DNA of 64,000 nucleotides from Candidatus Magasanikiibacteriota bacterium (GCA_016189025.1 JACPGS010000005.1:385-64384); one strand, 5' to 3'; shown: positions 3,496 to 44,943, counted from the first letter of the stretch. Numbers and translations are program-made. The notes: generated by a model from the sequence alone, not told the origin.

Positions 3496-3610
3496 CTCAC
3501 TCCTGCCCAGCTGACCCGTCGTCCGGCACCACCTCTCGGGCCAGCCTTCGTTCCTTCCCTCCTCGGCCCAATCTCCAGAATAATCAAAGTTTGATTGTTC
3601 TGGAGAGCCG

Positions 3611-7916: not shown

Positions 7917-8573
7917 TCACGCGCGCGCCGTTGGCGTGACCACCCCTTCACAACAAACCTGGTGCTGCATGTTCCAAATTAAATATCTCACCGCCGAACT
8001 CTCTAAAACGGTAGATTGGCTGGAAAGAAGTTTTTTAATTTTACGAGCAAAGGACTGTTTAGAATTTTTATGAGCTTCTTTTGGTGTGTGATTTTTAAGT
8101 AATGACACCATTACCTGATTAGACGGTTCTAAAAATATCTCGGCGGTCTTATCTTGCTCTGGCCGCGTTCGCTTATTCTCATCATACAAAAAAATGAAAT
8201 CTTCATCATAACCAATGTACGCGTCCGCTTCGGCTTTTATGCTGCTTGGTCCCAAAATTTTACCAGAACGGCAAGATAGAGCATAAATAACTTTTGACTT
8301 TAACAATTTTTCATTATCACCGGCACGAACCAATTCCTCATTGTCTTGACCAGTTACAACATCATAATTTCCATGACCATTCAAAAATACTATTGTTGGC
8401 TCGTTTTTCTTAATCATACTTTCAAATTCTTTGCGGCTAGCCCGTTTTTTGTCTAAATCAAAAACATCGCTACCTTTTTCTTTGGCCAGTGTGATTATTT
8501 TATTAGCCCAAGTAGAAATGTAGCGAGTGGTCAAATCAAAATTTGGCCTGGTAACAAGCAACCTATGCTTCAT
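7917..8573 (-). CDS. caspase-like (clan CD, caspase-hemoglobinase fold) cysteine peptidase-like protein, 218 aa
   Basis: His-Cys dyad context TIVFLNGHGNYDVVTGQD ... VIYALSCRSG resembles caspase SHG...QACRG, with 37-aa His-Cys spacing. AT-rich codon usage. Confidence 0.45.
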   Translation of the reverse strand: MKHRLLVTRPNFDLTTRYISTWANKIITLAKEKGSDVFDLDKKRASRKEFESMIKKNEPTIVFLNGHGNYDVVTGQDNEELVRAGDNEKLLKSKVIYALSCRSGKILGPSSIKAEADAYIGYDEDFIFLYDENKRTRPEQDKTAEIFLEPSNQVMVSLLKNHTPKEAHKNSKQSFARKIKKLLSSQSTVLESSAVRYLIWNMQHQVCCEGVVTPTARA

Positions 8574-8775
8574 ACAGCGCTCCTTCCTTAAGGCCGCGCA
8601 AGAAACTCATCTCTACCTCAACTATTTTTTGGCCGATATCATCGCCGTTTTCTACATGAGCAATCATTTCATTTCTGTCAAAATTTCCTTGTGAGCCAAT
8701 CGACATGCCAGTATCCTCCGGCAAGGTCTTAAGCCGCTCAATAACTAATTGTTTTATCTCTTGTTCAGAAACCAT
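8563..8775 (-). CDS. hypothetical small protein (70 aa)
   Basis: Tightly packed upstream of the caspase-like gene (11-nt overlap); AT-rich. Confidence 0.35.
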   Translation of the reverse strand: MVSEQEIKQLVIERLKTLPEDTGMSIGSQGNFDRNEMIAHVENGDDIGQKIVEVEMSFLRGLKEGALYEA

Positions 8776-8778
8776 ATA

Positions 8779-8973
8779 CTATATAATTTTTAAATCGGAT
8801 AATTTCTCCAAAATCATAGCACCTATTTCGGTATCATTATCCACTTCCAAAAAGGCTACCTGCCAAGTAATTGGACCTTTGCCGGGGATAACCAAAATAA
8901 CTTCTTCGCGGAAATTTATAGGAAGATTAGCAAAAACTTTATAGAATTGTTGTTTTTGTTGTTCTTTGCTCAT
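8779..8973 (-). CDS. hypothetical small protein (64 aa)
   Basis: First gene of the AT-rich three-gene cassette; 4-nt gap to the next gene. Confidence 0.35.
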   Translation of the reverse strand: MSKEQQKQQFYKVFANLPINFREEVILVIPGKGPITWQVAFLEVDNDTEIGAMILEKLSDLKII

Positions 8974-9120
8974 ATAGTTTATACTACTCTAAACACTCAT
9001 AAAATTCAATACTTACCAATGCATACCGATCTTTTAATACTTATCCTTAATTTCCCATGTTCTTTCAGGAGTCTTGGTCATATAATACATTTCACCTTCT
9101 ATAAATTTAGTATGGTTATA

Positions 9121-9338
9121 CAACCAAATCCGAACCTATTTTATCGCAAATGTGTAATTTTGGGAAGGCCGCCCGACGGCTCCGCGCCCCGACCGAAGCG
9201 TCGGGGCTGGCAAATCCCGCAAAAATTTTCAATTCTTTTTATAGGGCGCGAAGCGGGCAAAAATTCCCTCTCCCTAACCCTCTTCCTTTTTGCCCGCTTA
9301 CGAGGGCGGCGGCCGATTTTTTGGGCGGGCGGCGGGCG
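9121..9338. repeat. long inverted repeat A, copy 1; partner at 14195..14518
   Basis: About 218 bp nearly identical to the reverse complement of 14195..14518, which carries an extra insertion of about 110 bp. Contains the hairpin GCCCCGACcgaagcGTCGGGGC. ORFs inside it (9150..9524, 9141..9428) are repeat artefacts. Confidence 0.7.
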
Positions 9339-9342
9339 GACG

Positions 9343-10050
9343 TTAGTAAATGTTCTTTTTCGGTCTGTTCTGTCCTTTCCACCAATCTTTTCTCCGCTCA
9401 TTCTCTTGATAAGCAAAGGGTCGTCCAAGATGTATCAAATCCATCTCCTCTTTCATCTTTTCCGGAGATTTATCTGAAAACTCAAGACTCAACGCATACA
9501 GCGACAGCTCTCCATAGGTGTTGATTGGTGATCCAATGTATTGAGGTATCTGTGTTGGATGTTTTCTCGAATGTCGTTTAAGATATGCAAACCACTGCTT
9601 TCCCTTAAAATTACGTCCTTGCTCAATAAAATATATTTTGCCTTGATCTTTTTCAGGATCATGCCAAGGGTAAAATGAATCCTCACGCGGATGGTATTGT
9701 ATTCCTATCTCGCGCGAATCAGGAAAAGTGCGATCTTCTCTTAACTCGCCAACCGTGCGATCAGCGATCTCCGCCAGTGTTGATCCTTGCAACACCTTGT
9801 CCGCTTCGTATCTCCCGCCCGGCCCGTCCGCCGCAAATACTCGCTCTTGAAATTTACCCCATCGAGCTGCGCTGCGTGATTCTCTGTACAATTCAATAAA
9901 TTGGCGCACGGCTTCTTCTTCCTTGCGTCGTTCTTCTTCTCGTTTTTGTTTTCTTCCGGCATCTTCAAAACCCTCCGTATCTTCGACGGTTCTGCGTGCC
10001 TGGTCTTCATCACCAGTATGCGGCTGCTGTGACTCTCCACGCTCTGGCAT
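9343..10050 (-). CDS. hypothetical protein (235 aa), Glu/Arg-rich N-terminus
   Basis: Last gene of the minus-strand operon, directly after the PRMT-like gene. Confidence 0.45.
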   Translation of the reverse strand: MPERGESQQPHTGDEDQARRTVEDTEGFEDAGRKQKREEERRKEEEAVRQFIELYRESRSAARWGKFQERVFAADGPGGRYEADKVLQGSTLAEIADRTVGELREDRTFPDSREIGIQYHPREDSFYPWHDPEKDQGKIYFIEQGRNFKGKQWFAYLKRHSRKHPTQIPQYIGSPINTYGELSLYALSLEFSDKSPEKMKEEMDLIHLGRPFAYQENERRKDWWKGQNRPKKNIY

Positions 10051-10052
10051 AA

Positions 10053-10922
10053 TCAGTTAATTAATTTTGCTCTGCATCGTATTGCATCCCAATTTGTATG
10101 ATAGCTGTAACGAATATCTAATTGGATCATATCACCTTTTATCACATGCACATCTTTGTTGAGTGGTATAATAACCGGCGGCATCAAACTATCAGAGGAC
10201 TCAAAATTGATCCCATCATAAACTTGAAGAGGAGAAGTTAATCGCAAGCTATTTAAGGTTCCTTCCCGCGCTATCTTGATCTTGATACTCCTGTTGATTC
10301 GTAAAGAATTCTGCTGCCGAAGGTCAATCGTGGTAAATAGTTGTCGTTTCGACAGTATACGCGGTTTTTTGACTCCAGTAAACCCAAAATAATGGGTTCT
10401 TATCTCCACCGCATTTTCAAATTGATATTGAGATTGGGCAAGCTCAACATAATTGAAAATAAGGGCTGGAATTCGTGCGCCATCTTGCTTGATAAGATTT
10501 TTGTTGATGTAATTCAATATTGGGATCTGCGGCTCCGTCACTTGCCAAGTGCTTAAATTTTCCGCAATCACCACATCTACTTTTTCATCATCAAGGTCTT
10601 CGAGTGTAGTCTTGAAAATATCCTTACGAATAAGTTTGATGCGATCTTGAAAACCACTCTTTCTTATGTTCGCCTCGGCAAAGCGTGCGACTTTCGGGTC
10701 AATCTCTACTGCATATACTTTTTTCGCTCCCGCTTTTGCCGCAAGAATACTTAAAATACCTGAACCCGCGCCGCTTTCCAAGACCCGCTTGCCCTTGCAC
10801 ACCTTTTGTATCGCCTTCTTAAATGGCGTGACTCGTTTCGCATCGGATACCATTTCGTAATGATAGGGCAGCCCAAGCGCTTCTGCCTGCTGTGGATTGT
10901 TGTATTGAATTCTTGATGTCAT
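10053..10922 (-). CDS. class I SAM-dependent methyltransferase with protein-arginine-methyltransferase (PRMT)-like core
   Basis: VLESGAGSGILSILAAKAGAKKVYAVE closely matches PRMT/CARM1 motif I plus post-I. VDVVIAENLSTWQVTE resembles the double-E loop. THYFG resembles the THW loop. A C-terminal beta-rich domain follows. Confidence 0.6.
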   Translation of the reverse strand: MTSRIQYNNPQQAEALGLPYHYEMVSDAKRVTPFKKAIQKVCKGKRVLESGAGSGILSILAAKAGAKKVYAVEIDPKVARFAEANIRKSGFQDRIKLIRKDIFKTTLEDLDDEKVDVVIAENLSTWQVTEPQIPILNYINKNLIKQDGARIPALIFNYVELAQSQYQFENAVEIRTHYFGFTGVKKPRILSKRQLFTTIDLRQQNSLRINRSIKIKIAREGTLNSLRLTSPLQVYDGINFESSDSLMPPVIIPLNKDVHVIKGDMIQLDIRYSYHTNWDAIRCRAKLIN

Positions 10923-10924
10923 AA

Positions 10925-11740
10925 TTACAAATTTTTATATATTTCCAAGTCTAGTTTCACAGATCCGAGTGACTCTTTTGTGACCACTCCTTGCACATAT
11001 CTTTTAATTTCAATGAATGATTGTGAAAATTCTGTTTTGAGATCACGAGGGCGCGGTAGATTAACGGTAACTTTTTCACGAATAGTGCCCGGCGATGGAG
11101 CCAAAATGTATACATTGTCACCGAGAAAGACCGCTTCCTCAACATCATGGGTAACAAAAACAACTGTCCTTGGTTCATATTGCAATATTTGCAAAAAAAG
11201 ATCCTGCATAAGCCGCTTCGTCTGCACATCGAGTGCGGCAAATGGTTCATCCATTAAAAGTATTTTTGGGTTCGTCGCAAATGCTCGTCCTAACGCGACT
11301 CGTTGTTGCATGCCGCCCGAGAGTTCCTTCGGATACGCTTTCTCAAAACCCTTCAATCCAATTGCTTCAATGTAGTGCGCAACGATTTGTGAGCGTTTAT
11401 CTGGAGCTGTATTTCGTATAAAAAGTCCGAATCCGATATTATCCTCAACCGTGAGCCAGGGAAAAAGATTGTAATGTTGAAATACGACGCCGCGATCATG
11501 TGAATCTCCGTCAATTTGTTTTCCATATTCCAGAACCCGTCCTGCGGTCGGTTTGAGTAGGCCAGCCAATAACTTAATGAGTGTGGACTTCCCGCAGCCG
11601 GAAGGACCAATCAAAGAAACAAATTCGCCCTCATGCACCTCAAAATTGACATCTTTGAGTGCGTCAATCGTTTCTCTGGTGGAGAGAAGATATTGTTTTG
11701 AAACATGTTCGATTGATAAAATAGGTTTTTTCTTGAGCAT
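10925..11740 (-). CDS. ABC transporter ATP-binding protein (NitT/TauT = nitrate/sulfonate/bicarbonate family)
   Basis: GPSGCGKSTL Walker A, LSGGMQQRVALGRA signature, LLMDEPFAALD Walker B. Start taken at MLKKKPILSIEHV. Confidence 0.85.
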   Translation of the reverse strand: MLKKKPILSIEHVSKQYLLSTRETIDALKDVNFEVHEGEFVSLIGPSGCGKSTLIKLLAGLLKPTAGRVLEYGKQIDGDSHDRGVVFQHYNLFPWLTVEDNIGFGLFIRNTAPDKRSQIVAHYIEAIGLKGFEKAYPKELSGGMQQRVALGRAFATNPKILLMDEPFAALDVQTKRLMQDLFLQILQYEPRTVVFVTHDVEEAVFLGDNVYILAPSPGTIREKVTVNLPRPRDLKTEFSQSFIEIKRYVQGVVTKESLGSVKLDLEIYKNL

Positions 11741-11744
11741 AGAA

Positions 11745-12509
11745 TTACCAGAAAAAATACTTTTCTCGCACGCGGCGCAACAGATAATCAGACAAAAGGG
11801 CAACTGCCGCGATCAAAATGAGTCCGGCAAAAACCTCATGGCTCCTCTGAAGCCGTCCCGCGATGTTGATGAGGTATCCCAGGCCGTTTTTTGCGTTAAT
11901 AATCTCGGCAAGAATTACATACGTCCATCCGATACCATTCATCACAATGATGCCATCAAGCATTTGCGGTAGCGCATGCGGCCAGTAGACGCGACGGGCG
12001 ATTGTTGCCCAAGATGCGCCAAATGATCGCGCAACGTCAATGTATTCTTGGGGAGTATGTCGAATAGCATTCCGAACTACGGGAATAATGTAAAATGCGA
12101 CTCCAACAAAAAGAAAAATAATCTTCATTGTCTCCCCGATTCCAAACCAAAGTATAAGTAACGGGATTAATGCCGTGATCGGGAGATAACGAAGCGGCTG
12201 GGTCAATGGATTCAGAAGGTATTCTATCCGTTTAGAAATCCCCATTAAGACCCCAATAATGGAACCGAAAATTACCGCGAGAAATGTGGCACTAGCAATA
12301 CGCGCAAAACTAATGAATAGTGCGCGAGCAAAACGTCCGCTCACAAGAAGCTCCCAAAGAGCGGACGCGGTACTGGATGGGGTTGGTAAAAAAATAGGGC
12401 GAACCAGTCCCGCGGTGGTTACCAGATGCCAAATCACAAGCACCACAACGATTGTTGTGGTACCCAATAGAAATGCTTGTGATAAACGAAATACAAATTT
12501 TCTCTTCAT
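11745..12509 (-). CDS. ABC transporter permease (SsuC/TauC-like, BPD_transp_1)
   Basis: Six TM segments and an EAA-like loop; adjacent to the ATPase gene. Confidence 0.85.
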   Translation of the reverse strand: MKRKFVFRLSQAFLLGTTTIVVVLVIWHLVTTAGLVRPIFLPTPSSTASALWELLVSGRFARALFISFARIASATFLAVIFGSIIGVLMGISKRIEYLLNPLTQPLRYLPITALIPLLILWFGIGETMKIIFLFVGVAFYIIPVVRNAIRHTPQEYIDVARSFGASWATIARRVYWPHALPQMLDGIIVMNGIGWTYVILAEIINAKNGLGYLINIAGRLQRSHEVFAGLILIAAVALLSDYLLRRVREKYFFW

Positions 12510-12550
12510 GCAACGAGTGGCTAATTAAGAGCTAAAGCTCGCTTTGCCTA

Positions 12551-12916
12551 CTAAAGCATTCTACCAATCATGAGCGCGAGCTCTAAGCCATCCTCAATCG
12601 CTGCGGTTGGCGCCTCACTCGGCTGGAGATCTCCGTAAAGATGCACCTCGTCAGTAATTCGGATGCTGTAGACAATTTTTCGGTTCAGAGATACCATCAG
12701 CCAGTTTCTGTCGCCGGCAGGATCAATCTTTGTCGCTTTATTTGTCTCAACATCCATGTATAGCTTCTCTACTTTCATGAATTTTTTTGTATCACCAGAA
12801 CTAAATGTGGTTGCGATCACTTTTTGCTTGGGAAGGTTATAAACCATCAAACCATTGATGTCCGGATCTTTTGTAACTACCTCGTTGATTAGTTTCGCAA
12901 TTTTTTCTTGTTGCAT
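12551..12916 (-). CDS. hypothetical protein (121 aa), possibly a roadblock/LC7-like small alpha/beta protein
   Basis: Conserved-looking small ORF inside the transporter operon; no diagnostic motif. Confidence 0.4.
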   Translation of the reverse strand: MQQEKIAKLINEVVTKDPDINGLMVYNLPKQKVIATTFSSGDTKKFMKVEKLYMDVETNKATKIDPAGDRNWLMVSLNRKIVYSIRITDEVHLYGDLQPSEAPTAAIEDGLELALMIGRML

Positions 12917-12972
12917 AATTCGTGGGGTTATTATTTATTGATTATAAGTAGCCAGCAAGTCGACCTTTTACC

Positions 12973-14061
12973 TTACTTGGCGTAAATTTTACGAATAACT
13001 GAATCGTCTTTTGCTTGTACGGCATCAAGCGGTTTCTCTATCATACCGAGCGACTTCCAAACCTCGCTTGCATTTGCGAAAACTGAATCAAAGAGAGCTG
13101 GCTGTCCATCAAGACCAAACATGCGGGCATTATCTTCAAGGTTCGGCCAATATACCCATGATAGACTTTCTTTCGTCGTCCCAATTCCTAAATCCGCAAA
13201 AAGCGGCTCATTCTCTACTAACACTTGCGCCGCAAAATCAGGATTGCGTTTTGCTTCTTCTACTCCATCTAACCAGCCACGCACGAATGCTTCTATTGCT
13301 TTCGGATGTGCGTTAATGAATTCCTGCTTTGCTACCATGACATCCGCAATAATGTTCGGAAAATCTTGCGTACTGATTAAAACATGGGCACTTTGCTTTT
13401 TCAGTGCTTGTTTTACATCCGGTTCCCACAATACTGCGGCATTGACTTGTCCGGCGGCAAACGCAGCTCTGGCAGTTTGCACATCTTGCGTGAATACAAG
13501 ACCATCGCGTATTTTTTGTTGTTCGGTTTCAGTGAGTTGTGAACTGCGCAACGCTGTTTCTAAAAGCCAGTGGCTTGGAGTAAACTGGACCAAAGATATT
13601 TTCTTACCCTTCAAATCTTCCACCCTCTTGATATCGGTGTCCGCCACCAAAGCATCTCCTCCTCGACTCCAGTCAACGTGTAAAAACGCTTTTCCATTGA
13701 TCCCGCCTGCGACGAAATTGGGAAGCTCATTTGCCCAGAAATCAATCGTTGACCACACTACATCAACGCCATCGGGGCCGCCTTTTGCAAAGGCTTTCCC
13801 TCGCGCGTCAATATCTTCAATCAGCACAAAGCGGACAGGCAAGCCATATTTTTTGGTATATATGCTTTCTGGATTTTCTTTGAATCCGCCATTAGCCACA
13901 ATTCCTCCAGCATAACCTGGCCAGGAAACGACGCCTACAATCAATGGGCGATCAAGGTCTACCCGCGACAATGGACTGCGCGCTCCGCGATTAGCGTAGA
14001 TGAGAGTGGCTACTATTATTAAAACTAAAATCCCCGCGAACACCAATTTTTTGTGTTTCAT
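12973..14061 (-). CDS. ABC transporter substrate-binding protein (NMT1/SsuA/TauA-like)
   Basis: N-terminal signal/TM segment followed by a periplasmic-binding fold; operon context. Confidence 0.8.
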   Translation of the reverse strand: MKHKKLVFAGILVLIIVATLIYANRGARSPLSRVDLDRPLIVGVVSWPGYAGGIVANGGFKENPESIYTKKYGLPVRFVLIEDIDARGKAFAKGGPDGVDVVWSTIDFWANELPNFVAGGINGKAFLHVDWSRGGDALVADTDIKRVEDLKGKKISLVQFTPSHWLLETALRSSQLTETEQQKIRDGLVFTQDVQTARAAFAAGQVNAAVLWEPDVKQALKKQSAHVLISTQDFPNIIADVMVAKQEFINAHPKAIEAFVRGWLDGVEEAKRNPDFAAQVLVENEPLFADLGIGTTKESLSWVYWPNLEDNARMFGLDGQPALFDSVFANASEVWKSLGMIEKPLDAVQAKDDSVIRKIYAK

Positions 14062-14194
14062 ATTGAGCTACGAATTATCATAAATCATTGTAATTATTAT
14101 ACCAGATTGGATGTGAATACACAATCGTCGTAGGGGAGTTCATATTTGTTGCGCGCGCAAGGGTGGGTGGGGCAAGCGCAACGACTATTATTTC

Positions 14195-14518
14195 GCCCGC
14201 CGCCCGCCCAAAAATCGCCTGCCGTCCTCGCAAGCGGGCAAAAAGGAAGAGGGTCAGGGAGAGGGAATTTTTGCCCGCTTGCGTTTCGCGCCGAAGGCGC
14301 GATGGGGAAAGCGGCTCCGCCTCCGCCGAATGGCGGAGAGACAATCCCGCAAAAATTTTCTTCCTTATTTGGAAAAGAAAAATCGCGCGCGCCCTATAAA
14401 AAGAATTGAAAATTTTTGCGGGATTTGCCAGCCCCGACGCTTCGGTCGGGGCGCGGAGCCGTCGGGCGGCCTTCCCAAAATTACACATTTGCGATAAAAT
14501 AGGTTCGGATTTGGTTGT
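14195..14518. repeat. long inverted repeat A, copy 2 (with an insertion of about 110 bp)
   Basis: Reverse complement of 9121..9338. ORF 14078..14629 and others inside it are repeat artefacts. Confidence 0.7.
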
Positions 14519-14519
14519 T

Positions 14520-14577
14520 TGTCGCCGATTTTTGGCGCGCCGAGGCGCGCCTGTTTCCCCGCCAAGAGGAGGTTCGA
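14520..14577. repeat. 58-bp inverted repeat, left copy, flanking the serine recombinase gene
   Basis: TGTCGCCGATTTTTGGCGCGCCGAGGCGCGCCTGTTTCCCCGCCAAGAGGAGGTTCGA is perfectly reverse-complementary to 16181..16238. Confidence 0.75.
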
Positions 14578-14794
14578 CATCCCGTGCGATTTTGAAATTC
14601 TGTATCGTTTGAGTATTTGCTTTGCCCAATACAAAAAGAATTTTTGCGACAGGGATAAGGTATGGTATACTGATAATGCTACCAACCTAAATCCGAGAAA
14701 CTCTTTTTTAATGGCCGTCTCGGACAATCTTTGAGAGTTTCTCTCTTGGGTTGGTAGCACCGGGGCGGCCATTTAAGTTTTAACGCATAAACAT

Positions 14795-16354
14795 ATGACG
14801 CAAAAATTCTTTTTGTACACCCGCAAGTCTACGGATGTTGAGGATAAACAAATCCTCTCGATTGAAGCCCAACTCACAGAATTGCGCGCCTTTGCCAAAG
14901 AGAATAATTTGGAAATCGTGGAGGAGTTAATTGAAAAACAAACCGCGAAAGTGCCGGGTCGTCCCATTTTTAATGTTATGCTTGCCAGAATAGAAAAAGG
15001 AGAGGCCAATGGAATTTTGTCTTGGCACGCAGATCGTTTGGCGCGCAATTCCGTGGACGGTGGAAGAATTATTTACTTGCTTGATATAGGTAGACTTGCG
15101 GCGTTGAAATTTCCAACGCTGTGGTTTGACAACACGCCGCAAGGAAAGTTCATGCTCAACATCGCTTTTGGGCAAAGCAAATACTACGTTGATTCACTTT
15201 CGGAGAATGTGAAACGAGGATTGCGCCAAAAAGTCAGACGCGGAGAATATCCGAGCATTGCGCCAGTCGGCTATCTCAATGACGTGCGGCTGAAAACAGT
15301 CGTAGTGGACAAAAAGAAGTCGGCGATTATTAGTCAAGCGTTCGAACTCTACGCGAAAAATGACAGCCGTCTCGAAGATATATCTGACTTTTTGGCGCAC
15401 CAAGGCATTACCTCTCGCGGTGGCAAACCGCTCAAACGAGACAGAATTTCTTTTATCCTTTCCAACCCGTTCTATGTTGGGCTGTTTCAGTACGCAGGCG
15501 AGCTTTACGAAGGAAAACACCAGCCAGTTATCTCAAAGAAAATTTTTGACCACGTGCAGGAAGTATTAAAGCAGAGAGGACGGCCGCACCATAAAATCAA
15601 GAATGAATCGCAACCGTTCTGCGGACTTTTTTACTGCACCTGCGGCATGATGATTACTGGCGAATACAAGGTTAAGAGACAAAAAAATGGCAACGTGCAT
15701 TACTACACTTACTACCATTGCTCCCGAAAATCCAAAACCATCATTTGCAAAGAACCTTGTATTCGCCAAGAGGCATTGGATATACAGGTGTCCTCTCTGC
15801 TTCAAAAATTTTCTTTGAGCGAGGATTGGGCGGCGGAACTTTTGAAAATGTTTGAAAAGGACAGCGTGCAAGCCGCCCAATCCTCGACGGCTTTTGTTCA
15901 AGAGGCGCAGGGGAAGATTGAGGAAATTAAAACCAAGCTCCAGCGACTTCTGGACTCATATTTAGAGCAGGATGTTGAGCGCGAAGTGTATCTCAAAAAG
16001 AAGGCGGAACTGATGGGCGAAAAGAAGTCGTTGGAAGAAAAAAGTATCACTCTTAAACAAAAGCAAACTGGCTGGGTCGAACCGATGCGGAAATGGATAA
16101 AACAGGCAGAATATCTGCCCAAAATCGCATGGGATAGCAACCTTTTTGGCAAAAAGGTTGCCGCCAAAGAAATCTTTGGGTCGAACCTCCTCTTGGCGGG
16201 GAAACAGGCGCGCCTCGGCGCGCCAAAAATCGGCGACAATTGGGGGCAAAATCAATGGGCGGCCTTGCAGGCCGCCCACCAATTGGCTTCTGAAAACCCG
16301 AAAAGTTTTGTATTGGTACCGCGTACGGGAATCGAACCCGTGTTTGATGGCTGA
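14795..16354 (+). CDS. large serine recombinase (resolvase/invertase N-terminal domain + recombinase domain + zinc ribbon + coiled coil)
   Basis: N-terminal YTRKSTDVEDKQ...SIEAQ catalytic-serine region, Cys cluster CGLFYCTCG...YYHCSRK, long coiled-coil tail. The ORF reads through the right IR into tRNA-Glu, so the true C-terminus is uncertain. Confidence 0.75.
   Translation: MTQKFFLYTRKSTDVEDKQILSIEAQLTELRAFAKENNLEIVEELIEKQTAKVPGRPIFNVMLARIEKGEANGILSWHADRLARNSVDGGRIIYLLDIGRLAALKFPTLWFDNTPQGKFMLNIAFGQSKYYVDSLSENVKRGLRQKVRRGEYPSIAPVGYLNDVRLKTVVVDKKKSAIISQAFELYAKNDSRLEDISDFLAHQGITSRGGKPLKRDRISFILSNPFYVGLFQYAGELYEGKHQPVISKKIFDHVQEVLKQRGRPHHKIKNESQPFCGLFYCTCGMMITGEYKVKRQKNGNVHYYTYYHCSRKSKTIICKEPCIRQEALDIQVSSLLQKFSLSEDWAAELLKMFEKDSVQAAQSSTAFVQEAQGKIEEIKTKLQRLLDSYLEQDVEREVYLKKKAELMGEKKSLEEKSITLKQKQTGWVEPMRKWIKQAEYLPKIAWDSNLFGKKVAAKEIFGSNLLLAGKQARLGAPKIGDNWGQNQWAALQAAHQLASENPKSFVLVPRTGIEPVFDG
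16181..16238. repeat. 58-bp inverted repeat, right copy
   Basis: Perfect reverse complement of 14520..14577. Confidence 0.75.
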
Positions 16355-16388
16355 GAACCATCTGTCCTAGCCCCTAGACGAACGCGGC
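16314..16388 (-). tRNA. tRNA-Glu (anticodon CTC)
   Basis: Minus-strand sequence GCCGCGTTCGTCTAGGGGCTAGGACAGATGGTTCTCAGCCATCAAACACGGGTTCGATTCCCGTACGCGGTACCA. Glu-type D-arm, anticodon loop TTCTCAG, TTCGATT T-loop, CCA end. Confidence 0.75.
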
Positions 16389-19853: not shown

Positions 19854-22415
19854 ATGAGCAAAAGGGTTAAGACGGCAAAGCCGAGGGTCGCCCCCCCGCC
19901 GCGGCAACTCTACGACGCCTCTGACCAGACGCCGGTCCGGTTTGCCGTGTCGCCCGGATTGTCGGAGGAGATAATCCGGGAAATCTCGCGCCAAAAGCAG
20001 GAGCCGGCGTGGCTGTTAGAAAAACGTCTAAAAGCTTGGGGACTTTTTACCCAAACGCCCGTACCCACCTGGGGCGCTGATTTGTCTAAACTTGATTTGG
20101 ATAAAATTGTTTATTTTGTCCGGCCCGATGCCGCGGAAACCAAAAATTGGGCCGAGGTGCCGGCCGAGATTAAAAAAACCTTTGACCGGCTAGGTATCCC
20201 CGAAGCCGAAAAAAAAGCCCTGGCCGGCGTAGGGGCGCAATACGATAGCGACGTCGTGTATCACAAGCTCAAAAAACAATGGGAAGACAAAGGAGTGATT
20301 TTTGAGAATATGGACGTGGCGGTGCAGAAGTATCCGGAGCTGGTGAAAAAATACTTCATGACGCAATGCATTCCGATTAACGATCATAAATTCGCTATGC
20401 TCCACGCCGCGGTGTGGAGCGGCGGCACCTTTATTTATGTGCCCAAAAACGTCAGCGTGGATTTGCCGCTCCAGGCGTACTTCCGCATGAACGCGCGGGG
20501 CGGCGGGCAGTTTGAGCACACGCTCATCATCGTGGACGAGGGAGCGCAATTACATTATATTGAAGGCTGTTTTGTTAAAGGCACATACATTAAAACTGAC
20601 AAGGGCGACAAAACAATAGAAAGTATTAAAATTGGCGACAAGGTAATGACACATACAGGTGTGTATAAACCCGTATATCATACCCAGACAAGAAGACATA
20701 CTGGTGAGTTATATAACATAATATATTATGGTGATAGCACAGCAAATTTGTTGGTAACAAATGAGCATCCGTTCCTAGCCGTAAAAAGGCAACACAAAAA
20801 TGAGAAAAACGAAACGTGGGAAAAAGAGTGGATAAAACCACCGCAGTTAACCAAGCATGACTATCTCACTATACCTATTAATAAAACAATACGTACCGCA
20901 AAAAAATGTACTTTCACAATAAAAACATGGAACAATACAACCAAGGCATTTTATAATAAAAAAATTTCTGTGCTAAATGTTCCAGAATTTTATCGGCTGA
21001 TTGGATACTACCTTGCCGAAGGAAGCATCAGTGGCGGATATTATCTGAACTTCTCATTCGGAATAGAGGAGATAGTCTACATCGAAGACGTTGAAAATAT
21101 ACTCACTTCTTTATTTGGCGTCAAAAAAGTGCATCACATGGTTCACAAAACAAACCACGGAGTTTCACTGGTGGCATGTTCAGTGCAGCTCGCCCGTATT
21201 TTTGAGCAATTCGGAAAAAAGAATAATCTTAAACAATTGCCAAATTGGGCAATAACTGAATCACTTGAAAATCAAAAACAGCTTATTAAAGGATATTTTC
21301 GCGGTGATGGCAACTATTATAATCGTCGCCACGCTTCGGGATTTAAGGAAACCTTCAGAATGAATACAACCTCCAAAAAATTAACCTACCAAATGCGTGA
21401 CATACTCCTGCGTTTAAAAATCCCGGCTTTTATTAACCTGCGCGATAGAAAAAAAGAACATCGCCAGCCAATGTATACCATTGGAATTAGCGGAAATCAT
21501 ATGAAAAGCTTTGGCAATATAGTTGGCTTACCTGTTCCAGAAAAAATGCACGGTAAAAAACGTGCGTCACGATTTTATATTGATGATAACTATGCCTATT
21601 ATCCCATTAAATCTATACAAAAAAGAATGGTTAAAAAATTACCCGTCTATAATTTTAGCGTATTGGATAATGAAAGTTATATGGCCAACGGTGTTACGGT
21701 TCACAATTGTTCCGCCCCGCGCTACGGCACCAGCTCCCTGCACGCCGGCGGCGTGGAGATATTTGTCGGACGCGGCGCCCGGATGCGCTATTCCTCCATT
21801 GAAAACTGGTCGCACGACACCTATAATTTGAATACCAAACGCGCGCTGGTGGACGAGGATGGCATAATGGAGTGGGTCAACGGCAATCTGGGATCGTGCA
21901 CCACCATGCTCTACCCCTGCTCAATTCTGCGCGGGCGAGGGAGCCGCTCGGATTCGCTTGGCATTGCTTTTGCCGGCCCGGGCCAAAACCAAGACACCGG
22001 CGCCAAGGCCATCCACGCCGCGCCGCATACCAGTTCCACGATTGTTTCAAAATCTATCTCGGTGAATGGCGGCATCAATACTTTCCGCGGCCTGATTAAA
22101 ATAATGCCGATGGCTACGAACGTCAACGCCTCCATGGTCTGCGATGCGCTGCTCATCGGCAACCAGGCCATTGCCAACACCATTCCGGAGCTAAAGATAA
22201 AAAACGACCAGGTGCAGGTCGCCCACGAAGCGCGCGTCGGCAAAATCGGCGAAGAAGAAATTTTCTTTTTGCAATCAAGAGGGCTTAACGAGCAGGAAGC
22301 GACGCGATTAGTTGTCTCCGGTTTTATTGAACCGATTGTCAAAGCCTTGCCGGTGGAGTATGCTTTGGAATTGAATAGGCTGATTGAGATGGAAATGGAT
22401 GGGGCGGTTGGTTAA
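19854..22415 (+). CDS. sufB: Fe-S cluster assembly protein SufB interrupted by an intein
   Basis: SufB extein sequences flank an insertion. The junctions LHYIEG|C and HN|CSAP match the conserved SufB EGCxAP site. Confidence 0.85.
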   Translation: MSKRVKTAKPRVAPPPRQLYDASDQTPVRFAVSPGLSEEIIREISRQKQEPAWLLEKRLKAWGLFTQTPVPTWGADLSKLDLDKIVYFVRPDAAETKNWAEVPAEIKKTFDRLGIPEAEKKALAGVGAQYDSDVVYHKLKKQWEDKGVIFENMDVAVQKYPELVKKYFMTQCIPINDHKFAMLHAAVWSGGTFIYVPKNVSVDLPLQAYFRMNARGGGQFEHTLIIVDEGAQLHYIEGCFVKGTYIKTDKGDKTIESIKIGDKVMTHTGVYKPVYHTQTRRHTGELYNIIYYGDSTANLLVTNEHPFLAVKRQHKNEKNETWEKEWIKPPQLTKHDYLTIPINKTIRTAKKCTFTIKTWNNTTKAFYNKKISVLNVPEFYRLIGYYLAEGSISGGYYLNFSFGIEEIVYIEDVENILTSLFGVKKVHHMVHKTNHGVSLVACSVQLARIFEQFGKKNNLKQLPNWAITESLENQKQLIKGYFRGDGNYYNRRHASGFKETFRMNTTSKKLTYQMRDILLRLKIPAFINLRDRKKEHRQPMYTIGISGNHMKSFGNIVGLPVPEKMHGKKRASRFYIDDNYAYYPIKSIQKRMVKKLPVYNFSVLDNESYMANGVTVHNCSAPRYGTSSLHAGGVEIFVGRGARMRYSSIENWSHDTYNLNTKRALVDEDGIMEWVNGNLGSCTTMLYPCSILRGRGSRSDSLGIAFAGPGQNQDTGAKAIHAAPHTSSTIVSKSISVNGGINTFRGLIKIMPMATNVNASMVCDALLIGNQAIANTIPELKIKNDQVQVAHEARVGKIGEEEIFFLQSRGLNEQEATRLVVSGFIEPIVKALPVEYALELNRLIEMEMDGAVG
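20568..21707 (+). mobile_element. intein (380 aa) with LAGLIDADG homing-endonuclease domain inside sufB
   Basis: Starts with Cys (CFVKG), ends with ...VHN followed by extein Cys. Two LAGLIDADG-like motifs (LIGYYLAEGSISG and LIKGYFRGDGN). AT-rich relative to the exteins. Confidence 0.8.
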
Positions 22416-22448: not shown

Positions 22449-22523
22449 TGGTGGACCGACGGGGACTTGAACCCCGAACGCCACTTGTCAAAGGTGGTAT
22501 TTTGCCAGTTAAACTATCGGCCC
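22449..22523 (-). tRNA. tRNA (anticodon not resolved by eye; anticodon loop reads TTTGACA)
   Basis: Minus-strand sequence GGGCCGATAGTTTAACTGGCAAAATACCACCTTTGACAAGTGGCGTTCGGGGTTCAAGTCCCCGTCGGTCCACCA. 7-bp acceptor stem, TTCAAGT T-loop, CCA end. Confidence 0.65.
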
Positions 22524-33958: not shown

Positions 33959-34162
33959 TTATTTTTTAAATCCCTGCCAGATTAATGCTAATGTTAGAAT
34001 TACTAAAACGGTGGTTAAAGTAACCATTGCGATACTGGCCTTTTTTGTTGAGGAATCAAGTTTATTAATTGAATCTACCAGTTGTTTAGAACTCCTCTCA
34101 ACGCTTTGTACGACTGGAGTAGTAGACGTGCTGAAATCTCCTGGTGGAATAATATTAGGCAT
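33959..34162 (-). CDS. small single-TM membrane protein (67 aa)
   Basis: C-terminal hydrophobic helix; overlaps the hsdS stop (co-transcribed). Confidence 0.3.
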   Translation of the reverse strand: MPNIIPPGDFSTSTTPVVQSVERSSKQLVDSINKLDSSTKKASIAMVTLTTVLVILTLALIWQGFKK

Positions 34163-34166
34163 AAAT

Positions 34167-35516
34167 TTATGACTTACCTTTTTCCATCATCTCCTCAACC
34201 TTTCGTTTCGCCTCCGCCAACAGCTCCTTTGCTTTCTTTCGTGCTGCATGCGATGCTCGGACCAGGTCAGTAATTTTCTTTTGCGTTGCCGCTGGCAAAA
34301 TGGGGATTAATAAATTTTTTATATCCTTGTAACTAATGTTAGTTTGCACGCCACCCGTTCCAATTCTTGCTAATTGATCTTTACCTATAATTGAGTTAAG
34401 CAACAACACTAAATAATCGGGGTCAATATCCTTTGGTTTGAAATGCAGAATCCGCTGATTAATGCTGCACTTTTGAATGTCTGGAGGAATTAAAGAAGTC
34501 AAACCGATTGAACCAGACATTGATAAAACAATATCCCCCGGTCGTGCTAAATCTTTTTTAGAGAGAGAAGCGTCTTTCTCGGTAATATAGGCTGTGTCAG
34601 AAAGATCAAGCACGCCCTTCCCTATGTTATTAATTCTAATTAACGGTATGCCATTCTCCTGATAATTCTCACTTTTGAAAGGAAAACCCGTTGAATAATC
34701 TTTTATACAATCTTCTAACATCTTTACTGCTTTTTCTCTTATCTTTTTAATCAAATTATTATACAAGGGTTGATAAAATTCCGCATCCATCCGTTCGGCC
34801 GATTTAACATCGGAAAAATTAACTACGGTGTATGGTTCATTTTCTGTTTCAAAATTTTCTAAGCCTAATTCTTGTAAAAGCAGCTGTTCGGCTTGATGAT
34901 AAAATTTTCCAGCATCTTCTTTTTGATTGTGAATCTCTAAACATATTTGCTCAATTTTCTTTTGTTCATTTTCGCTAAAAATTGGTATTTTTATCTCTTT
35001 AATATTGGGAATATTTAAATTTGGTTGCGCCATGCCTGTTTGGAGCCGTAGGGTCTGAAAAATACCATATTTAGTGTTTAAAAAAAGGCCGGCAAAAAAC
35101 GGATTAACTTTATTAAACCGCACCCTAATTGTGTAAGAGCCAAAGGTGGCGCCTCTTAATTTTGGATAAACTACACTGGTTGCACCGGTGTTAGCCCCAC
35201 TTCTCGTAATTAAGCAATCTCCTGCCTCAAGTTTATATTCTGGTGGTACTTTCGCTCCATCAATTTTTAAAATTTCACCATCAATATCATAATCAAAAAG
35301 ATTCATGGCTCGTATGAAATCTACACCTCTCTCTAAATAATCGGGCTCTAAATACAGACCATACCTAACATCGCTTGTCAATGCACCGATTGTAGATGCT
35401 TTGGATAATTTTTTCATTGCATCCAAATACTCCGGCTGGTAATACTCCGCATCCAGCCGGTGCGCGCCTTCCAGTTGGGATTTTTGGATAATTGAACAGG
35501 CAATCACACAAATCAT
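34167..35516 (-). CDS. hsdS: type I restriction-modification specificity subunit HsdS (two target-recognition domains)
   Basis: Duplicated RLDAEYYQPEY / RMDAEFYQPLY conserved regions and a coiled-coil C-terminus. Confidence 0.85.
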   Translation of the reverse strand: MICVIACSIIQKSQLEGAHRLDAEYYQPEYLDAMKKLSKASTIGALTSDVRYGLYLEPDYLERGVDFIRAMNLFDYDIDGEILKIDGAKVPPEYKLEAGDCLITRSGANTGATSVVYPKLRGATFGSYTIRVRFNKVNPFFAGLFLNTKYGIFQTLRLQTGMAQPNLNIPNIKEIKIPIFSENEQKKIEQICLEIHNQKEDAGKFYHQAEQLLLQELGLENFETENEPYTVVNFSDVKSAERMDAEFYQPLYNNLIKKIREKAVKMLEDCIKDYSTGFPFKSENYQENGIPLIRINNIGKGVLDLSDTAYITEKDASLSKKDLARPGDIVLSMSGSIGLTSLIPPDIQKCSINQRILHFKPKDIDPDYLVLLLNSIIGKDQLARIGTGGVQTNISYKDIKNLLIPILPAATQKKITDLVRASHAARKKAKELLAEAKRKVEEMMEKGKS

Positions 35517-35995
35517 TTAATAAGGGGGCCTAGAATATAAGTTTCTAAAACTTTTTGGATTCCTAATTTAACCTGTGTTCCTTGTTTAAATATGGCCTCA
35601 TCTAATCTGCCATCCCCATAAGAAAGCGCAGCCTGATCAAAGTCAACCAAAGAATTATAACGAATTATTTCTCTATAGATAGGATTCAAAGTTTTTATCA
35701 TATCTCCAGGCAGTATCCCTGCGTTCAGTTTTGCCATTTCGTAAGCTTTATCTAGAAACCGTATTTTAGCACCGTTTACCATTATATTGTCACTCAAAGA
35801 TAAATTGAAGTCTAGTTCCTCTTTTAGATAATTAAGAATCTGTTTTACTAAATCTCTTTCATGCTCCAGCCGCCTTTGTACATCTAACTCTGCTGTCTCA
35901 CGTATCGATTTGATTGTTGCAAAATAGGTTACGCCCGCACCTATTATTGAACCAAAAAAGCCGCTTAATAAATTTCCCCATTCCATATTAAACAA
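35513..35995 (-). CDS. hypothetical membrane-anchored protein (160 aa) inserted between hsdM and hsdS
   Basis: N-terminal TM helix (LLSGFFGSIIGAGVTYFATI). Overlaps both neighbours by 4-8 nt, implying translational coupling. Confidence 0.5.
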   Translation of the reverse strand: MFNMEWGNLLSGFFGSIIGAGVTYFATIKSIRETAELDVQRRLEHERDLVKQILNYLKEELDFNLSLSDNIMVNGAKIRFLDKAYEMAKLNAGILPGDMIKTLNPIYREIIRYNSLVDFDQAALSYGDGRLDEAIFKQGTQVKLGIQKVLETYILGPLIK

Positions 35996-37940
35996 AATTT
36001 AATTTTTCCCTCCTCGCAAACTCTCTAAACCCCTCCGCAATCTCATCTAAATCGTGATCAAGCACTTTGCGACCTTTGCCATCGTACATATTACTCCCAT
36101 CGGGCATTTTTTTGTATACATAATCCCCGGAATTATTTTTGCCGCCCTTTTTGGATACGGCCATAAAAATTGGATAATCCTTTAGCGGCTCACCGGCCCA
36201 CTTTTGCAAGAACAATACGCTTGTTTTTACTCCAGCATGAGGTCTAAAAGTATTTTGATGCAAACCAATAACCGCAAGTATCCGTGCCCTTTCAAAAAGG
36301 TATTCACGGATATATTCCGCATTTGTATTATTTAAAATCCCCTGCGGCAACACTATTGCCATCCGCCCACCAGGCCGCAGTAAATCCAGGCAACGTTCGA
36401 TAAACAAAATATGTCGCTCAATTTTGTTTACCAGCCTGCCGTTCTTTTTGCCAAAGTTATACTGCCGGAGCAAACCTGGATCTTTAACTTCGCCGGCAAA
36501 CGGCGGATTGGTAAGGAGCACGTTAAAGTTAAAATAGTGAAAGGTGCGGCGATTTTCGGTATTGTCGGCGGCATTGCCCATATCTAATAGCCGCGTTTGC
36601 AATTTGGATCGCGCGTCAAGTAGCTGGGCATCTTCACCTTGCCACTCACGCGGGTCTAAAGAGTTGAGCTTAAACAAGTGCGACCGGCCGTCTCCGGCAA
36701 TGAGCATCAGCGCTCGCGATACCTTAGAAATTTCCTCGGCAAAATCTATACCCCAGACACGCTCTTTGGCATACTCGCGCATCGCCTCGTCGGAACTTTT
36801 GCAATGCTGATCACGCGCCCAGTACATAGCGCTGATTAAAAATCCGCCGGAGCCGGTAGCCGGATCAATAACATATTCATCGCGTTTTGGATCCAGCATT
36901 TTTACCGCCATAGAAATGACATGGCGCGGGGTAAAATATTGTCCTTTCTTACCTTTGGCTACTTCCGGAATAAGATATTCAAATGCTTCATCAATAATGG
37001 ACAAATCCGAACCGAATAAACGCGCCTTCTCCAATTCGCCCACCACTATCGATAAATGCTCCGGCGATAAATTAACATTCTCCTGTTCGTAAAAAGTACT
37101 GGGCCATTTTTTTATTGCTTGCTTGAACAAATTATTTATTGCTTGATAAGTGCGCGCAGTATCTTTGTATTTGCGAAACTGCACTTCGTTGTCCGGCCGG
37201 TGCAAACGCGCTTCCACTTCATCAAATAATTTTGCATAAATGAGTTTAAACACTTCGGTAAATACGTCAACGCCGGAGTTGGCCAGCACCAGTTCTTCCA
37301 TGTTCTTAATAATTTCGCGCAAATCCATTTTGGCACTGGTATATTCAAATAGTGTCTTTTTTGCTTCCAGTAAATCGTCTACAGTTTGGTCCGCCTTCGG
37401 CAAGTCGGGCAGAGTATCGTCAAATTCTTTGGGATACGGCCGGTATAAAATGATGTGCTTGTTGCCATTGGACCATAAACCAATTTCCGCGCCTTCGGAA
37501 TTAAGGTACGACTTAAGCTGTTCAATACCCTTTGCTTCTTTGGGGCTTTTTACTTCAACAATAATGTAAGGCGTAATTTGGTCTGGTTTATGTACCACAA
37601 TATCCGCTTTTTTGGCGTGGATTTCGCGGCCAAAATGTATTGATTTTTCGATGGCCAATCGATCGGCCGGATATTGATACCCGGCACGAAGTTTATGAAC
37701 CCACAGTTGGCGGATAATTTCTTCCGGGTGGCCCTTTTGCTTTTGATTATCGTACACTACGCGGTATTGGTCTGGCGCCAAAAGATCTTGTATATAATAT
37801 TTACCATCGTTGCGATTCACAATATAAAGTGCTTCATCTATTGCTATTCCCTCAAACTCTTTAAGGCCAAACCCGTCCAGTGAATTATGAAAAATTTTTG
37901 CGATGGCTTCTTTGACTTTATTTGGTTTTACAGTGGGCAT
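35988..37940 (-). CDS. hsdM: type I R-M N6-adenine DNA methyltransferase HsdM with an N-terminal extension of about 190 aa containing a PD-(D/E)xK-like motif
   Basis: LLTNPPFAGE motif IV and FTPRHV... motif I region. N-terminal ADIVVHKPDQITPYIIVEVKSPKE resembles an HsdR_N/Mrr-type nuclease core. Confidence 0.85.
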   Translation of the reverse strand: MPTVKPNKVKEAIAKIFHNSLDGFGLKEFEGIAIDEALYIVNRNDGKYYIQDLLAPDQYRVVYDNQKQKGHPEEIIRQLWVHKLRAGYQYPADRLAIEKSIHFGREIHAKKADIVVHKPDQITPYIIVEVKSPKEAKGIEQLKSYLNSEGAEIGLWSNGNKHIILYRPYPKEFDDTLPDLPKADQTVDDLLEAKKTLFEYTSAKMDLREIIKNMEELVLANSGVDVFTEVFKLIYAKLFDEVEARLHRPDNEVQFRKYKDTARTYQAINNLFKQAIKKWPSTFYEQENVNLSPEHLSIVVGELEKARLFGSDLSIIDEAFEYLIPEVAKGKKGQYFTPRHVISMAVKMLDPKRDEYVIDPATGSGGFLISAMYWARDQHCKSSDEAMREYAKERVWGIDFAEEISKVSRALMLIAGDGRSHLFKLNSLDPREWQGEDAQLLDARSKLQTRLLDMGNAADNTENRRTFHYFNFNVLLTNPPFAGEVKDPGLLRQYNFGKKNGRLVNKIERHILFIERCLDLLRPGGRMAIVLPQGILNNTNAEYIREYLFERARILAVIGLHQNTFRPHAGVKTSVLFLQKWAGEPLKDYPIFMAVSKKGGKNNSGDYVYKKMPDGSNMYDGKGRKVLDHDLDEIAEGFREFARREKLNFV

Positions 37941-37947
37941 AAAAAAA

Positions 37948-44587: not shown

Positions 44588-44943
44588 CGGACATTGATCC
44601 GATGAGAAAAAAATTTGCAGAAATTATAGAGGAGATGCTGGAAGAATTAGTTGAGCGAGTAAGGGTGCCGCCAGAAACTAAAGAATACATCAAACAAAAA
44701 CTGACTCGCTTTTGGGATGAGACATCGATTACGGGAAAGTTAAATTTTCACGATCGAGTACGAGAAGCTTTTTTTCTTTTTAATAATCCGCAAAATCATC
44801 CGGAAAAAAATAGACAAGCGGTACTTGAAATTGTCAAACATTTACTCCCAATAGAAATGACGGAATTATTCATCTTAGGAAGTGAATTTCAAAAAAGAGA
44901 AGGCGAGCCTGATGCCAAAATTATTCCGTTTAAAAAAAAGTAA
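44584..44943 (+). CDS. hypothetical protein (119 aa)
   Basis: ORF only; overlaps its neighbours. Confidence 0.3.
   Translation: MTDIDPMRKKFAEIIEEMLEELVERVRVPPETKEYIKQKLTRFWDETSITGKLNFHDRVREAFFLFNNPQNHPEKNRQAVLEIVKHLLPIEMTELFILGSEFQKREGEPDAKIIPFKKK

Follow-up and report, generated by a model that had tools for sequence, protein, structure and literature searches.

A putative SCC-like element with an inverted internal attachment site at the 3' end of a patescibacterial tRNA gene

The staphylococcal cassette chromosome (SCC) elements, mobilised by Ccr recombinases, appear to be the closest described analogues of a region found in a 64,000-nt stretch of DNA from a Candidatus Magasanikiibacteriota bacterium (GCA_016189025.1, JACPGS010000005.1:385-64384), hereafter the window, over whose whole length all positions are counted. 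The region, 9110-16318, carries a gene for a large serine recombinase (LSR) next to tRNA-Glu(CTC), and it is read here, with a probability of roughly three in four, as an integrated SCC-like cargo element mobilised by that LSR. Both systems are small cassettes of variable, non-phage and non-conjugative cargo with no separate directionality factor apparent, both sit at the 3' end of a conserved housekeeping gene, and both can stack in tandem as a usable half of the target survives (here, loci L020 and L086). The best curated similarities of the LSR are also to the Ccr proteins, although its scores (CcrB, 121.5 bits against a cutoff of 900; CcrC, 73 against 900; CcrA, 68 against 700) show that it is not a Ccr. 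The systems differ further in that the present element has a single recombinase gene, Patescibacteria as hosts and the CCA end of many tRNAs, rather than rlmH (orfX), as its target, and in that its crossover falls inside the recombinase gene and an inverted copy of its attachment site (attP) lies within the element.

Other systems share single features with this arrangement. The yeast 2-micron plasmid has, as the circular form of the present element would, two inverted target sites in long inverted repeats that separate two unique arcs, one with the recombinase gene. Its tyrosine recombinase, Flp, acts on FRT sites within 599-bp inverted repeats, and inversion serves copy-number amplification of an autonomously replicating molecule, whereas no replication gene is conserved in the present family. 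Hin/Gin/Pin segments hold a serine recombinase gene between inverted sites and can exchange gene ends, as in the Mu G segment, but their enzymes are of another class; here it is the recombinase's own end that would be swapped, and at the outer sites the element meets the host chromosome. A crossover within coding sequence that yields different C termini in the integrated and excised states is also the basis of integration-dependent immunity in mycobacteriophages, where attP lies in the repressor gene and a tyrosine integrase alters the C terminus by integration; in the present case the altered protein would be the recombinase itself.

The phage LSRs (SPbeta SprA, A118/LI Int, phiC31, Bxb1) have the same order of catalytic, recombinase and zinc-ribbon domains, the same invariant serine and arginine set, a short core, and an offset in the recognition motif between P-type and B-type arms. 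They are distant relatives (the nearest solved structures, SprA and A118 Int, match at E ~1e-7 only), and the present family differs in its absence from viral contigs, in lacking a conserved partner gene, in its unconserved host half-site and in its tRNA targets. The tycheposons of Prochlorococcus are small cargo elements at tRNA genes of streamlined genomes, a minority of which use a large serine recombinase (10.1101/2020.12.28.424599); most have tyrosine recombinases, often with replication genes, and a three-site inverted architecture is not described there. Use of tRNA genes by serine integrases was, to the knowledge of Mageeney et al. (2020), unreported, and accounted for 4.9% of their serine-integrase elements (PMC7192596). 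No description of the present family was found in the literature searched, which does not cover all journals.

Ends, attachment sites and the internal junction

The limits of the element are defined by comparison with relatives (loci labelled L001 and so on). In L001, whose LSR is 88% identical to that of the window, a continuous inverted copy of 16180-16318 joined to 9110-9176 lies upstream of the LSR gene. Read on the other strand, this copy is B'.R, the C-terminal coding DNA of the LSR, joined to arm A, the junction expected on circularisation of the window element. Because L001 carries this intact R/A junction joining the two window ends, the element is taken to extend from about 9110 to 16318 with a GTA core (Table 1). 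Comparative sequence evidence thus points to a genuine mobile element of 7.2 kb, integrated right at the 3' terminus of tRNA-Glu(CTC), in support of the integrative mobile region, with an LSR next to this tRNA gene, that an earlier note on this DNA had proposed. The ends, at 9110-9112 and 16316-16318, lie 10 nt and 79 nt beyond the ends of the repeats. GTA is the only sequence common to the junctions; on the tRNA strand it reads U72-A73-C74, and C75 and A76 of tRNA-Glu come from the element. The first 24 nt of A, used to scan metagenomes, retrieved the same A end with four different partners on its left, an R-like arm in L086 and unrelated host flanks in L088-L090. In every case the core was GGTA or GTA.

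Direct repeats of the tRNA 3' end were considered as borders of the island, and none of 13 nt or more was found, which fits a serine rather than a tyrosine integrase. The left attachment site (attL), the internal site and the right attachment site (attR) have only 2-6 nt in common and no direct repeats, in line with the short core and absence of target duplication characteristic of LSRs. Comparison of R and A by eye, in the window and L010 only, gave no convincing similarity of the kind that would indicate the terminal inverted symmetry of classical attP arms.

Two pairs of inverted repeats (IR), previously described as independent and nested, correspond to the halves of one inverted attP copy, as seen in L001, L005 and more than 20 other loci. 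The shorter pair, IR-B, is perfect, as had been noted, but its true length is 60 nt rather than 58 (14519-14578 and 16180-16239, 100% complementary). Nor does it bracket the recombinase gene, since its right arm forms codons ~462-482 inside the gene and only the left arm lies outside. The longer pair, IR-A, put at about 220-320 bp in the note, has arms of 219 nt (9120-9338) and 325 nt (14194-14518), made up of a 131-nt part at 100% (9120-9250 and 14388-14518) and a second part of 88 nt at 93% (9251-9338 and 14194-14280). Chance cannot account for perfect inverted repeats as long as 131 and 60 nt, and the same architecture recurs in about 60 independent assemblies. The inner IR-A copy, A', directly abuts arm B at 14518/14519; the 2-bp gap reported between them does not exist.

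The right IR-A copy alone has 107 extra nt (14281-14387), which the note took for an insertion that may mark degeneration. Relatives align continuously to this longer copy, so it is the left copy that carries a 107-nt deletion, and A' is apparently the ancestral version. A more telling mark of decay is the loss of 89 nt at 14518/14519. By comparison with intact loci, the internal site of the family corresponds to an inverted copy of the circular-form junction R/A (attP), and the A'/B site of the window to that inverted junction minus its central 89 nt; the missing part is the reverse complement of 9110-9119 plus 16240-16318, core included, and the deletion is flanked by a 4-nt microhomology (TTGT). 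The internal site of the window copy is probably locked, and site-specific inversion is unlikely there because the crossover core is gone; the outer sites and the LSR are intact. Arm B extends beyond IR-B by a 16-nt piece (14579-14594) complementary to 16120-16135, an extra piece of 15-17 nt being present in many loci, and it lacks a 44-nt, two-hairpin segment of the LSR C-terminal coding DNA.

Contigs from the same population give a further line of evidence. Logan contigs match the window flanks at 99.99-100%; those of the left flank end at 9139, 9139, 9140 and 8902, and those of the right flank at 16289, 16317, 16324 and 16333. If these are k=31 unitig-style contigs, as assumed here, the window arrangement alone predicts ends at 9149 and 16210, neither of which is seen, whereas a coexisting R.GTA.A junction predicts 9139 and 16289, both of which are seen in run SRR12113419. 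Ends at these two positions suggest that such a junction coexists with the window arrangement, and that the population contains a circular form or else a variant whose internal site is intact.

Table 1. Features of the element and its tRNA target, in window coordinates
Feature	Position	Strand	Basis or sequence
attL core GTA, junction of host flank and arm A	9110..9112		Comparison with intact R/A junction of L001 and L086-L090; same three-site logic in 17 loci
Arm A, outer IR-A copy	9113..9338	+	Repeat detection; 107-nt deletion relative to A'
Cargo, six genes	9343..14061	-	Open reading frame calls, family searches
Arm A', inner IR-A copy, inverted	14194..14518	+	Longer version
Deletion scar of internal site	14518..14519		Intact versions in L001 (119-257 and 54-121) and L005
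Arm B, left IR-B copy (14519-14578) and 16-nt piece (14579-14594)	14519..14594	+	Inverted copy of LSR C-terminal coding DNA
LSR promoter-like site, TTGCGA-16-TATACT with TG	14644..14671	+	Consensus match only
Conserved pseudoknotted LSR 5' leader	14678..14781	+	Covariation in loci
LSR gene, 519 aa	14795..16354	+	Open reading frame, domain matches, alignment of homologues
Two adjacent hairpins in coding sequence, HP1 (16137-16161) and HP2 (16164-16179)	16137..16179	+	Covariation; absent from left arm
Arm B' (16180-16239) and R (16240-16315)	16180..16315	+	LSR C-terminal coding DNA; P arm of attachment site
attR core GTA, complement of C74-A73-U72 of tRNA-Glu	16316..16318		Junction comparison
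tRNA-Glu(CTC), target gene	16314..16388	-	tRNA detection; promoter-like site 16435-16407
attR (window), around core			...gttttgtattgGTAccgcg (tRNA)
attL (window), around core			...tataaatttaGTAtggttatacaacc
R/A junction (relatives), around core			...gttttgtactgGTAtggttatacaacc

The recombinase, its two ends and its tRNA targets

The earlier note's 519-aa LSR reading into the tRNA gene is borne out by the analysis; its last 12 codons are antisense tRNA, and the two genes overlap by 41 nt. The protein has Resolvase (PF00239, E 1e-20, residues 6-151) and Recombinase (PF07508, E 8e-14) domains and a probable Zn_ribbon_recom domain (PF13408, 22 bits, just below the 25.3 cutoff). Residues R10, S12, D80, R81 and R84 and six cysteines are invariant in an alignment with 19 homologues (alignment A1), giving the N-terminal catalytic domain with nucleophilic serine and arginines expected of an LSR. 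It aligns with residues 62-297 of A118 Int, and the alignment runs through the part of that integrase that holds its coiled-coil. Classification by profile models, as the note had recommended, indicates an integrase-type LSR. The nearest curated families are CcrB, XisF, CcrC and CcrA, but no threshold is reached, and the protein appears to be an LSR that is a member of no named family. The note's suggestion of a small Hin/Gin-like invertase, an enzyme of about 190 aa with a C-terminal helix-turn-helix (HTH) and ~26-bp inverted sites, conflicts with the length of 519 aa and the Recombinase and zinc-ribbon domains; as to its other suggestion, an insertion sequence (IS) or transposon with a serine transposase, the enzyme is not of the IS607 type, in which a MerR-like N-terminal HTH precedes a C-terminal catalytic domain, since the IS607 model scores 22.7 bits against a cutoff of 110 and the catalytic domain here is N-terminal.

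Relatives at about 70% identity number in the thousands in the candidate phyla radiation (CPR), or Patescibacteria. The exact 519-aa protein is not on record, and cluster look-ups added nothing. NCBI annotation of this metagenome-assembled genome (MAG; there Candidatus Magasanikbacteria) holds only the last 400 aa, from an internal Met (P0002). The deposited protein misses 14795-15151, most of the catalytic domain, and would not be recognisable as a complete recombinase.

Among the 19 homologues, conservation spans the segment encoded by 16180-16239 (FGSNLxLAxREAR...) onward through QNQWAALxAAH..., and most aligned sequences end in GIEP- or GFEP-like peptides, the antisense translation of the tRNA T-arm. 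Because conservation runs through the right IR-B arm into these tRNA-antisense ends, the right arm is the native gene and the left arm an inverted duplicate. The crossover point thus falls within coding sequence of the LSR, 15-16 codons ahead of the stop that is reached on reading into A. Across the core, the frame enters A as (W/C/S/Y)(L/I)YNxxRT(Y/H/F)FxxN(S/Y/C) and then a stop (in short form, xLYNxxRTYFxxNx-stop); in the window, 9113-9157 continue the LSR frame as WLYNQIRTYFIANV-stop, and GC-rich hairpins follow. Codons of the A-encoded tail vary synonymously (CGA or AGA for Arg; ACC, ACT or ACA for Thr), which argues that the tail is under constraint at the protein level. Among the 120 best homologues, 78 carry the tRNA-antisense tail and about 16 the A-encoded tail (~522 aa).

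The scale of the family was determined with one genome per species. LSRs 54-88% identical to that of the window are present in at least 581 Patescibacteria loci, of which the best 80 were fetched. The layout host/A-cargo-A'.Rc.B-LSR-B'.R/tRNA, in which Rc is the inverted R, appears to hold in nearly all relatives. A minus-strand tRNA overlaps the LSR 3' end in 56 fetched loci, and the tRNAs found there include those for Glu, Gly, Lys, Val, Ile, Cys, Leu, Arg, Tyr, Asn, Thr, Gln and Phe. In 61 of the 73 loci with enough upstream DNA, some of the 3' end of the gene occurs a second time, inverted, usually 70-300 nt before the start codon. Where intact, these inverted arms take in the final 115-185 nt of the gene, and the two arms of a locus usually agree at 96-100%; some matches are shorter, being decayed or cut by contig ends. 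Many relatives' contigs end inside these repeats, as fits genuine long inverted repeats. A second pair is seen in 26 loci, with the outer arm 1.4-8 kb away and the inner arm abutting the first pair at the crossover point in 17 of them. In the 17 fully resolved loci, the three sites have in common 2-6 nt (TGGTG, TGGAG, GTG, GAG, GTA or GT), the complement of tRNA position 72, the discriminator and CCA. As the smallest common block is GT for A73 tRNAs and GA for U73 tRNAs, we infer a crossover at N73-C74.

Orientation of the LSR module varies in the same sample, with 56 loci facing the tRNA and about 10 in the other state. L093 shows the flipped arrangement, in which a plus-strand tRNA-Leu is followed by Rc.B and then by the LSR reading into R/A. 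A plus-strand tRNA just upstream, as in the flipped state, is also present in L021, L030, L038, L057 and L061, and L091 has the order Rc.B-LSR-R/A-cargo-A', broken in both repeats. The invertible segment proposed in the earlier note therefore survives in part: the LSR module does occur in both orientations among relatives, but the internal crossover core is absent in the window. Flipping in place and integration via the other inverted attP give the same local structure, and the data do not separate these routes.

Several observations bear on how targets are recognised. LSR genes that are 90-92% identical at the nucleotide level lie at different tRNAs (Gly-ccc and Val-tac, Arg-tct and Leu-tag, Val-cac and Arg-cct), suggesting that the family is promiscuous as to tRNA identity. 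The host-side arm of attL is unconserved across loci. Conservation in A covers its first 30 nt, in which a T-loop-like CGAAC motif stands at a distance of 17 nt from the core, against 13 nt for the real T-loop of the tRNA arm, an offset of 4 nt. Work on the LI/A118 integrase reportedly shows that a few-nt outward shift of one recognition motif tells attP from attB, a difference in spacing with which the offset seen here agrees.

Since the tRNA-side arm survives integration, attR should still be a usable target, and tandem stacking is expected. The host arm of L020, which is itself R-like, and direct R/A arrays in L086 are consistent with stacking. In L086 (1-3753), three R/A-like 60-nt junctions in direct orientation (59-118, 1124-1151 and 3509-3568) separate open reading frames (ORFs) of 121, 164, 162, 269 and 325 aa, unrelated genes with no LSR among them; the locus resembles an array of stacked or decayed cassettes. 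By eye only, these ORFs include a toxin-antitoxin-like pair and IS200-type and IS30-type transposases. L001, the closest relative of the window element, looks like an insertion at an off-target or secondary site. Its right end (2003-2100) joins GGTA to aacacatgaatgg, which is non-tRNA DNA, and its left end (L088, 1-103) joins a coding region ending in YNHERPH, which may be the end of a DDE-type transposase.

Ten of the loci (L007, L009, L012, L014, L021, L026, L031, L039, L042 and L074) come from MAGs labelled Gammaproteobacteria, Syntrophaceae, Phycisphaerae, Bacteroidetes or Planctomycetales. Such labels on contigs with a CPR-type LSR and tRNA could reflect mis-binned contigs or wrong labels.

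Cargo, predicted structures and flanking DNA

The cargo genes encode a 235-aa unknown protein, a PrmA-like methyltransferase, an ABC ATPase, an ABC permease, a 121-aa unknown protein and an SsuA/NMT1-like binding protein. The ABC importer is SsuA/TauC/SaoA-like, and two ORFs are without a family match. The ABC transporter and two hypothetical proteins are as listed in the earlier note, whose PRMT-like methyltransferase is PrmA-like here. With a transporter and a methyltransferase but no phage structural or replication genes, the cargo is not that of a prophage. The cargo of 26 elements has no protein family in common, leaving the LSR as the only conserved gene, and no candidate directionality factor, replication gene or transfer gene is conserved in it. 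A search of 2.9 million viral contigs gave a single match, at 43% identity.

GC content is 37-47% in the region, 41-47% in the element proper, and 53-58% in the flanks. To the left of attL, 7917-9109 has a GC content of 36.8% and three small minus-strand ORFs (218, 70 and 64 aa); no Pfam match was found for the 218-aa ORF, no NCBIfam match for any of the three, and no A-like or R-like site, and this segment may be a remnant of an older insertion. Other low-GC islands, at 34000-38000 and 44000-45000 (36-47% in a 50-65% background), may also be foreign DNA. Low GC at 20-22 kb prompted a look for a second element at tRNA-Ser (22449-22523), but an 853-aa ORF (19854-22415) fills the interval and there is no A-like motif.

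Two structured features are associated with the LSR gene. In its 5' leader, the loop GGCCGTCTCGG (14713-14723) of a hairpin at 14678-14758 pairs with CCGGGGCGGCC (14760-14770), which is followed by ATTTAAGTTTT. This pseudoknot is present in 35 of about 75 loci (L001, L008, L015 and L076-L085 among them) in 26 different versions of the helix, with covariation at each of its 11 pairs. Where it is missing, the LSR starts with another N terminus (MSMNNNKYFLY...). Rfam has no credible match for the leader or the arms, with no hit that reaches gathering score and nothing over 14678-14781 at E values up to 10. The second feature is the pair of hairpins within the coding sequence, which, with the two nucleotides between them, form the segment without a counterpart in the left arm. 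Across 69 loci they have undergone many compensatory substitutions, including some that alter amino acids; the peptide is SNLFxKKVAAKEIFG.

A 22-nt inverted repeat (14630-14651 and 14796-14817) has one half at the -35 region of the LSR promoter (ACAAAAAGAATTTTTGC) and the other at the start of the coding sequence (QKFFLY). It recurs, as judged by eye, in loci with the pseudoknotted leader (such as L008, L015 and L039), and could be an operator pair or a helix that masks the start site. A separate small gene in the inverted copy (14365-14772, minus strand; a called gene in L001) was considered and rejected, as the open frame extends only 3-30 codons upstream of the arm in most loci and has no conserved start.

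Alternative explanations and meaning

Under the preferred reading, the LSR would exchange strands at N73-C74, with the tRNA T-arm and acceptor on one side and the end of its own gene on the other. The circle would carry two inverted attP sites, allowing integration in either orientation, or else the LSR module could flip in place. Either route would switch the C terminus of the LSR between the A-encoded and the tRNA-antisense tail, and would also decide whether the gene faces the tRNA promoter head-on or sits downstream from it. The surviving tRNA-side half-site would let further elements stack in tandem.

Some points weigh against this account. No single element was seen in both orientation states, and neither an empty attB site nor a circular contig was recovered for the window element. 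The Logan evidence is indirect, being drawn from contig ends, and the other ends are unexplained. An unconserved host-side half-site is unusual for an LSR attB, and the right end of L001 in non-tRNA DNA means that tRNA targeting is not absolute. Because no directionality factor or accessory gene is conserved, excision is assumed by analogy with Ccr and TnpX. Finally, the purpose assigned to the inverted internal site is itself inferred.

A phase-variation switch of the Hin/Gin kind, in which the recombinase inverts the 5-kb cargo, its own 1.6-kb segment or both in place at a fixed locus, would account for the inverted repeats that flank both segments, for the two orientations of the LSR module among relatives and for a cargo orientation that varies relative to the LSR between loci. 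It is improbable nonetheless: the enzyme has Recombinase and zinc-ribbon domains and is not a small invertase with an HTH, the same module occurs at no fewer than 13 tRNAs with unrelated cargo and host flanks, GC content marks the region as foreign, and the internal crossover core is deleted in the window.

The repeats could instead belong to two modules inserted successively at the tRNA, an IS-like Rc.B-LSR-B'.R unit with 115-185-nt terminal inverted repeats and a palindromic circle junction, and a mobilised cargo unit, A-cargo-A'. Each module would then be bounded by its own inverted repeats, which meet at the core, and the identities of the two pairs are sometimes discordant (89% and 99.6% in L023, 91% and 100% in L085); in L089, A' and A face each other across 45 nt. 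This explanation is just as improbable, as the peptide encoded across R/A is conserved at the protein level, so that joining of R to A represents one functional form of the gene, and no homologue has a tail that crosses the R/Rc junction. Nor is an A-less LSR module with both arms established, several loci being without a detectable IR-A partner in the available DNA but with A' unchecked.

A third possibility is that the inverted junction acts in single-stranded DNA taken up by natural competence, on which CPR bacteria are thought to rely. A would pair with A' and R with Rc, either rebuilding a double-stranded attP or splinting the ends for recombinase-independent circularisation. Read on the opposite strand, the internal copy is exactly the end-to-end junction, and it has long arms. 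What the left arm lacks is a pair of self-folding hairpins that show compensatory changes, and GC-rich hairpins stand at corresponding places in the two arms, also where the sequences have diverged. Absence of the family from viral contigs and of conserved transfer genes would also be explained. Concerted evolution of the arms was looked for in the orthologous Saccharibacteria elements L083 and L085, but the 106 nt next to the core hardly vary among the four arms, too little to be informative. Left and right arms there (9705-9839 and 11402-11536 in L083) are identical over these 106 nt and have different GC-rich hairpins at the same position further in. Selection for arm-to-arm pairing was not detected, however, as arm mismatches show no strand-asymmetric wobble bias (57 against 57 for IR-B, 45 against 36 for IR-A) and transversions dominate. 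With no direct evidence for a single-stranded stage and a window copy that lacks the splint centre, this route is quite improbable. If it were true, the element could circularise or present a double-stranded attP without pre-existing recombinase, with the hairpins as folding or priming elements, and it would represent a new route between cells without phages or conjugation.

That the repeats or the A'/B junction were made by a metagenome assembler is highly improbable: although many relatives' contigs break inside the repeats and the window's internal junction is unlike that of all relatives, the architecture recurs in about 60 assemblies that come from different projects and were made with different assemblers, the junction k-mers of an 89-nt deletion with only 4-nt microhomology are not something that a de Bruijn assembler can create, and the same-population Logan contigs match the flanks.

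An SCC-like element mobilised by its LSR thus remains the preferred explanation, and the window copy, with its internal site and one A arm decayed, is an ordinary member of an extraordinary family. Found in hundreds of species-level genomes, this family combines one conserved gene and free cargo with the universal tRNA CCA end as landing site, and it runs against the published rarity of tRNA-gene use by serine integrases (PMC7192596). An integrase with a tRNA 3' end as its sole requirement might be attractive for insertions across a broad range of hosts. The movement of genes between the tiny, streamlined and mostly uncultured CPR/Patescibacteria is largely unknown, and the element is a candidate vehicle for gene flow among them.

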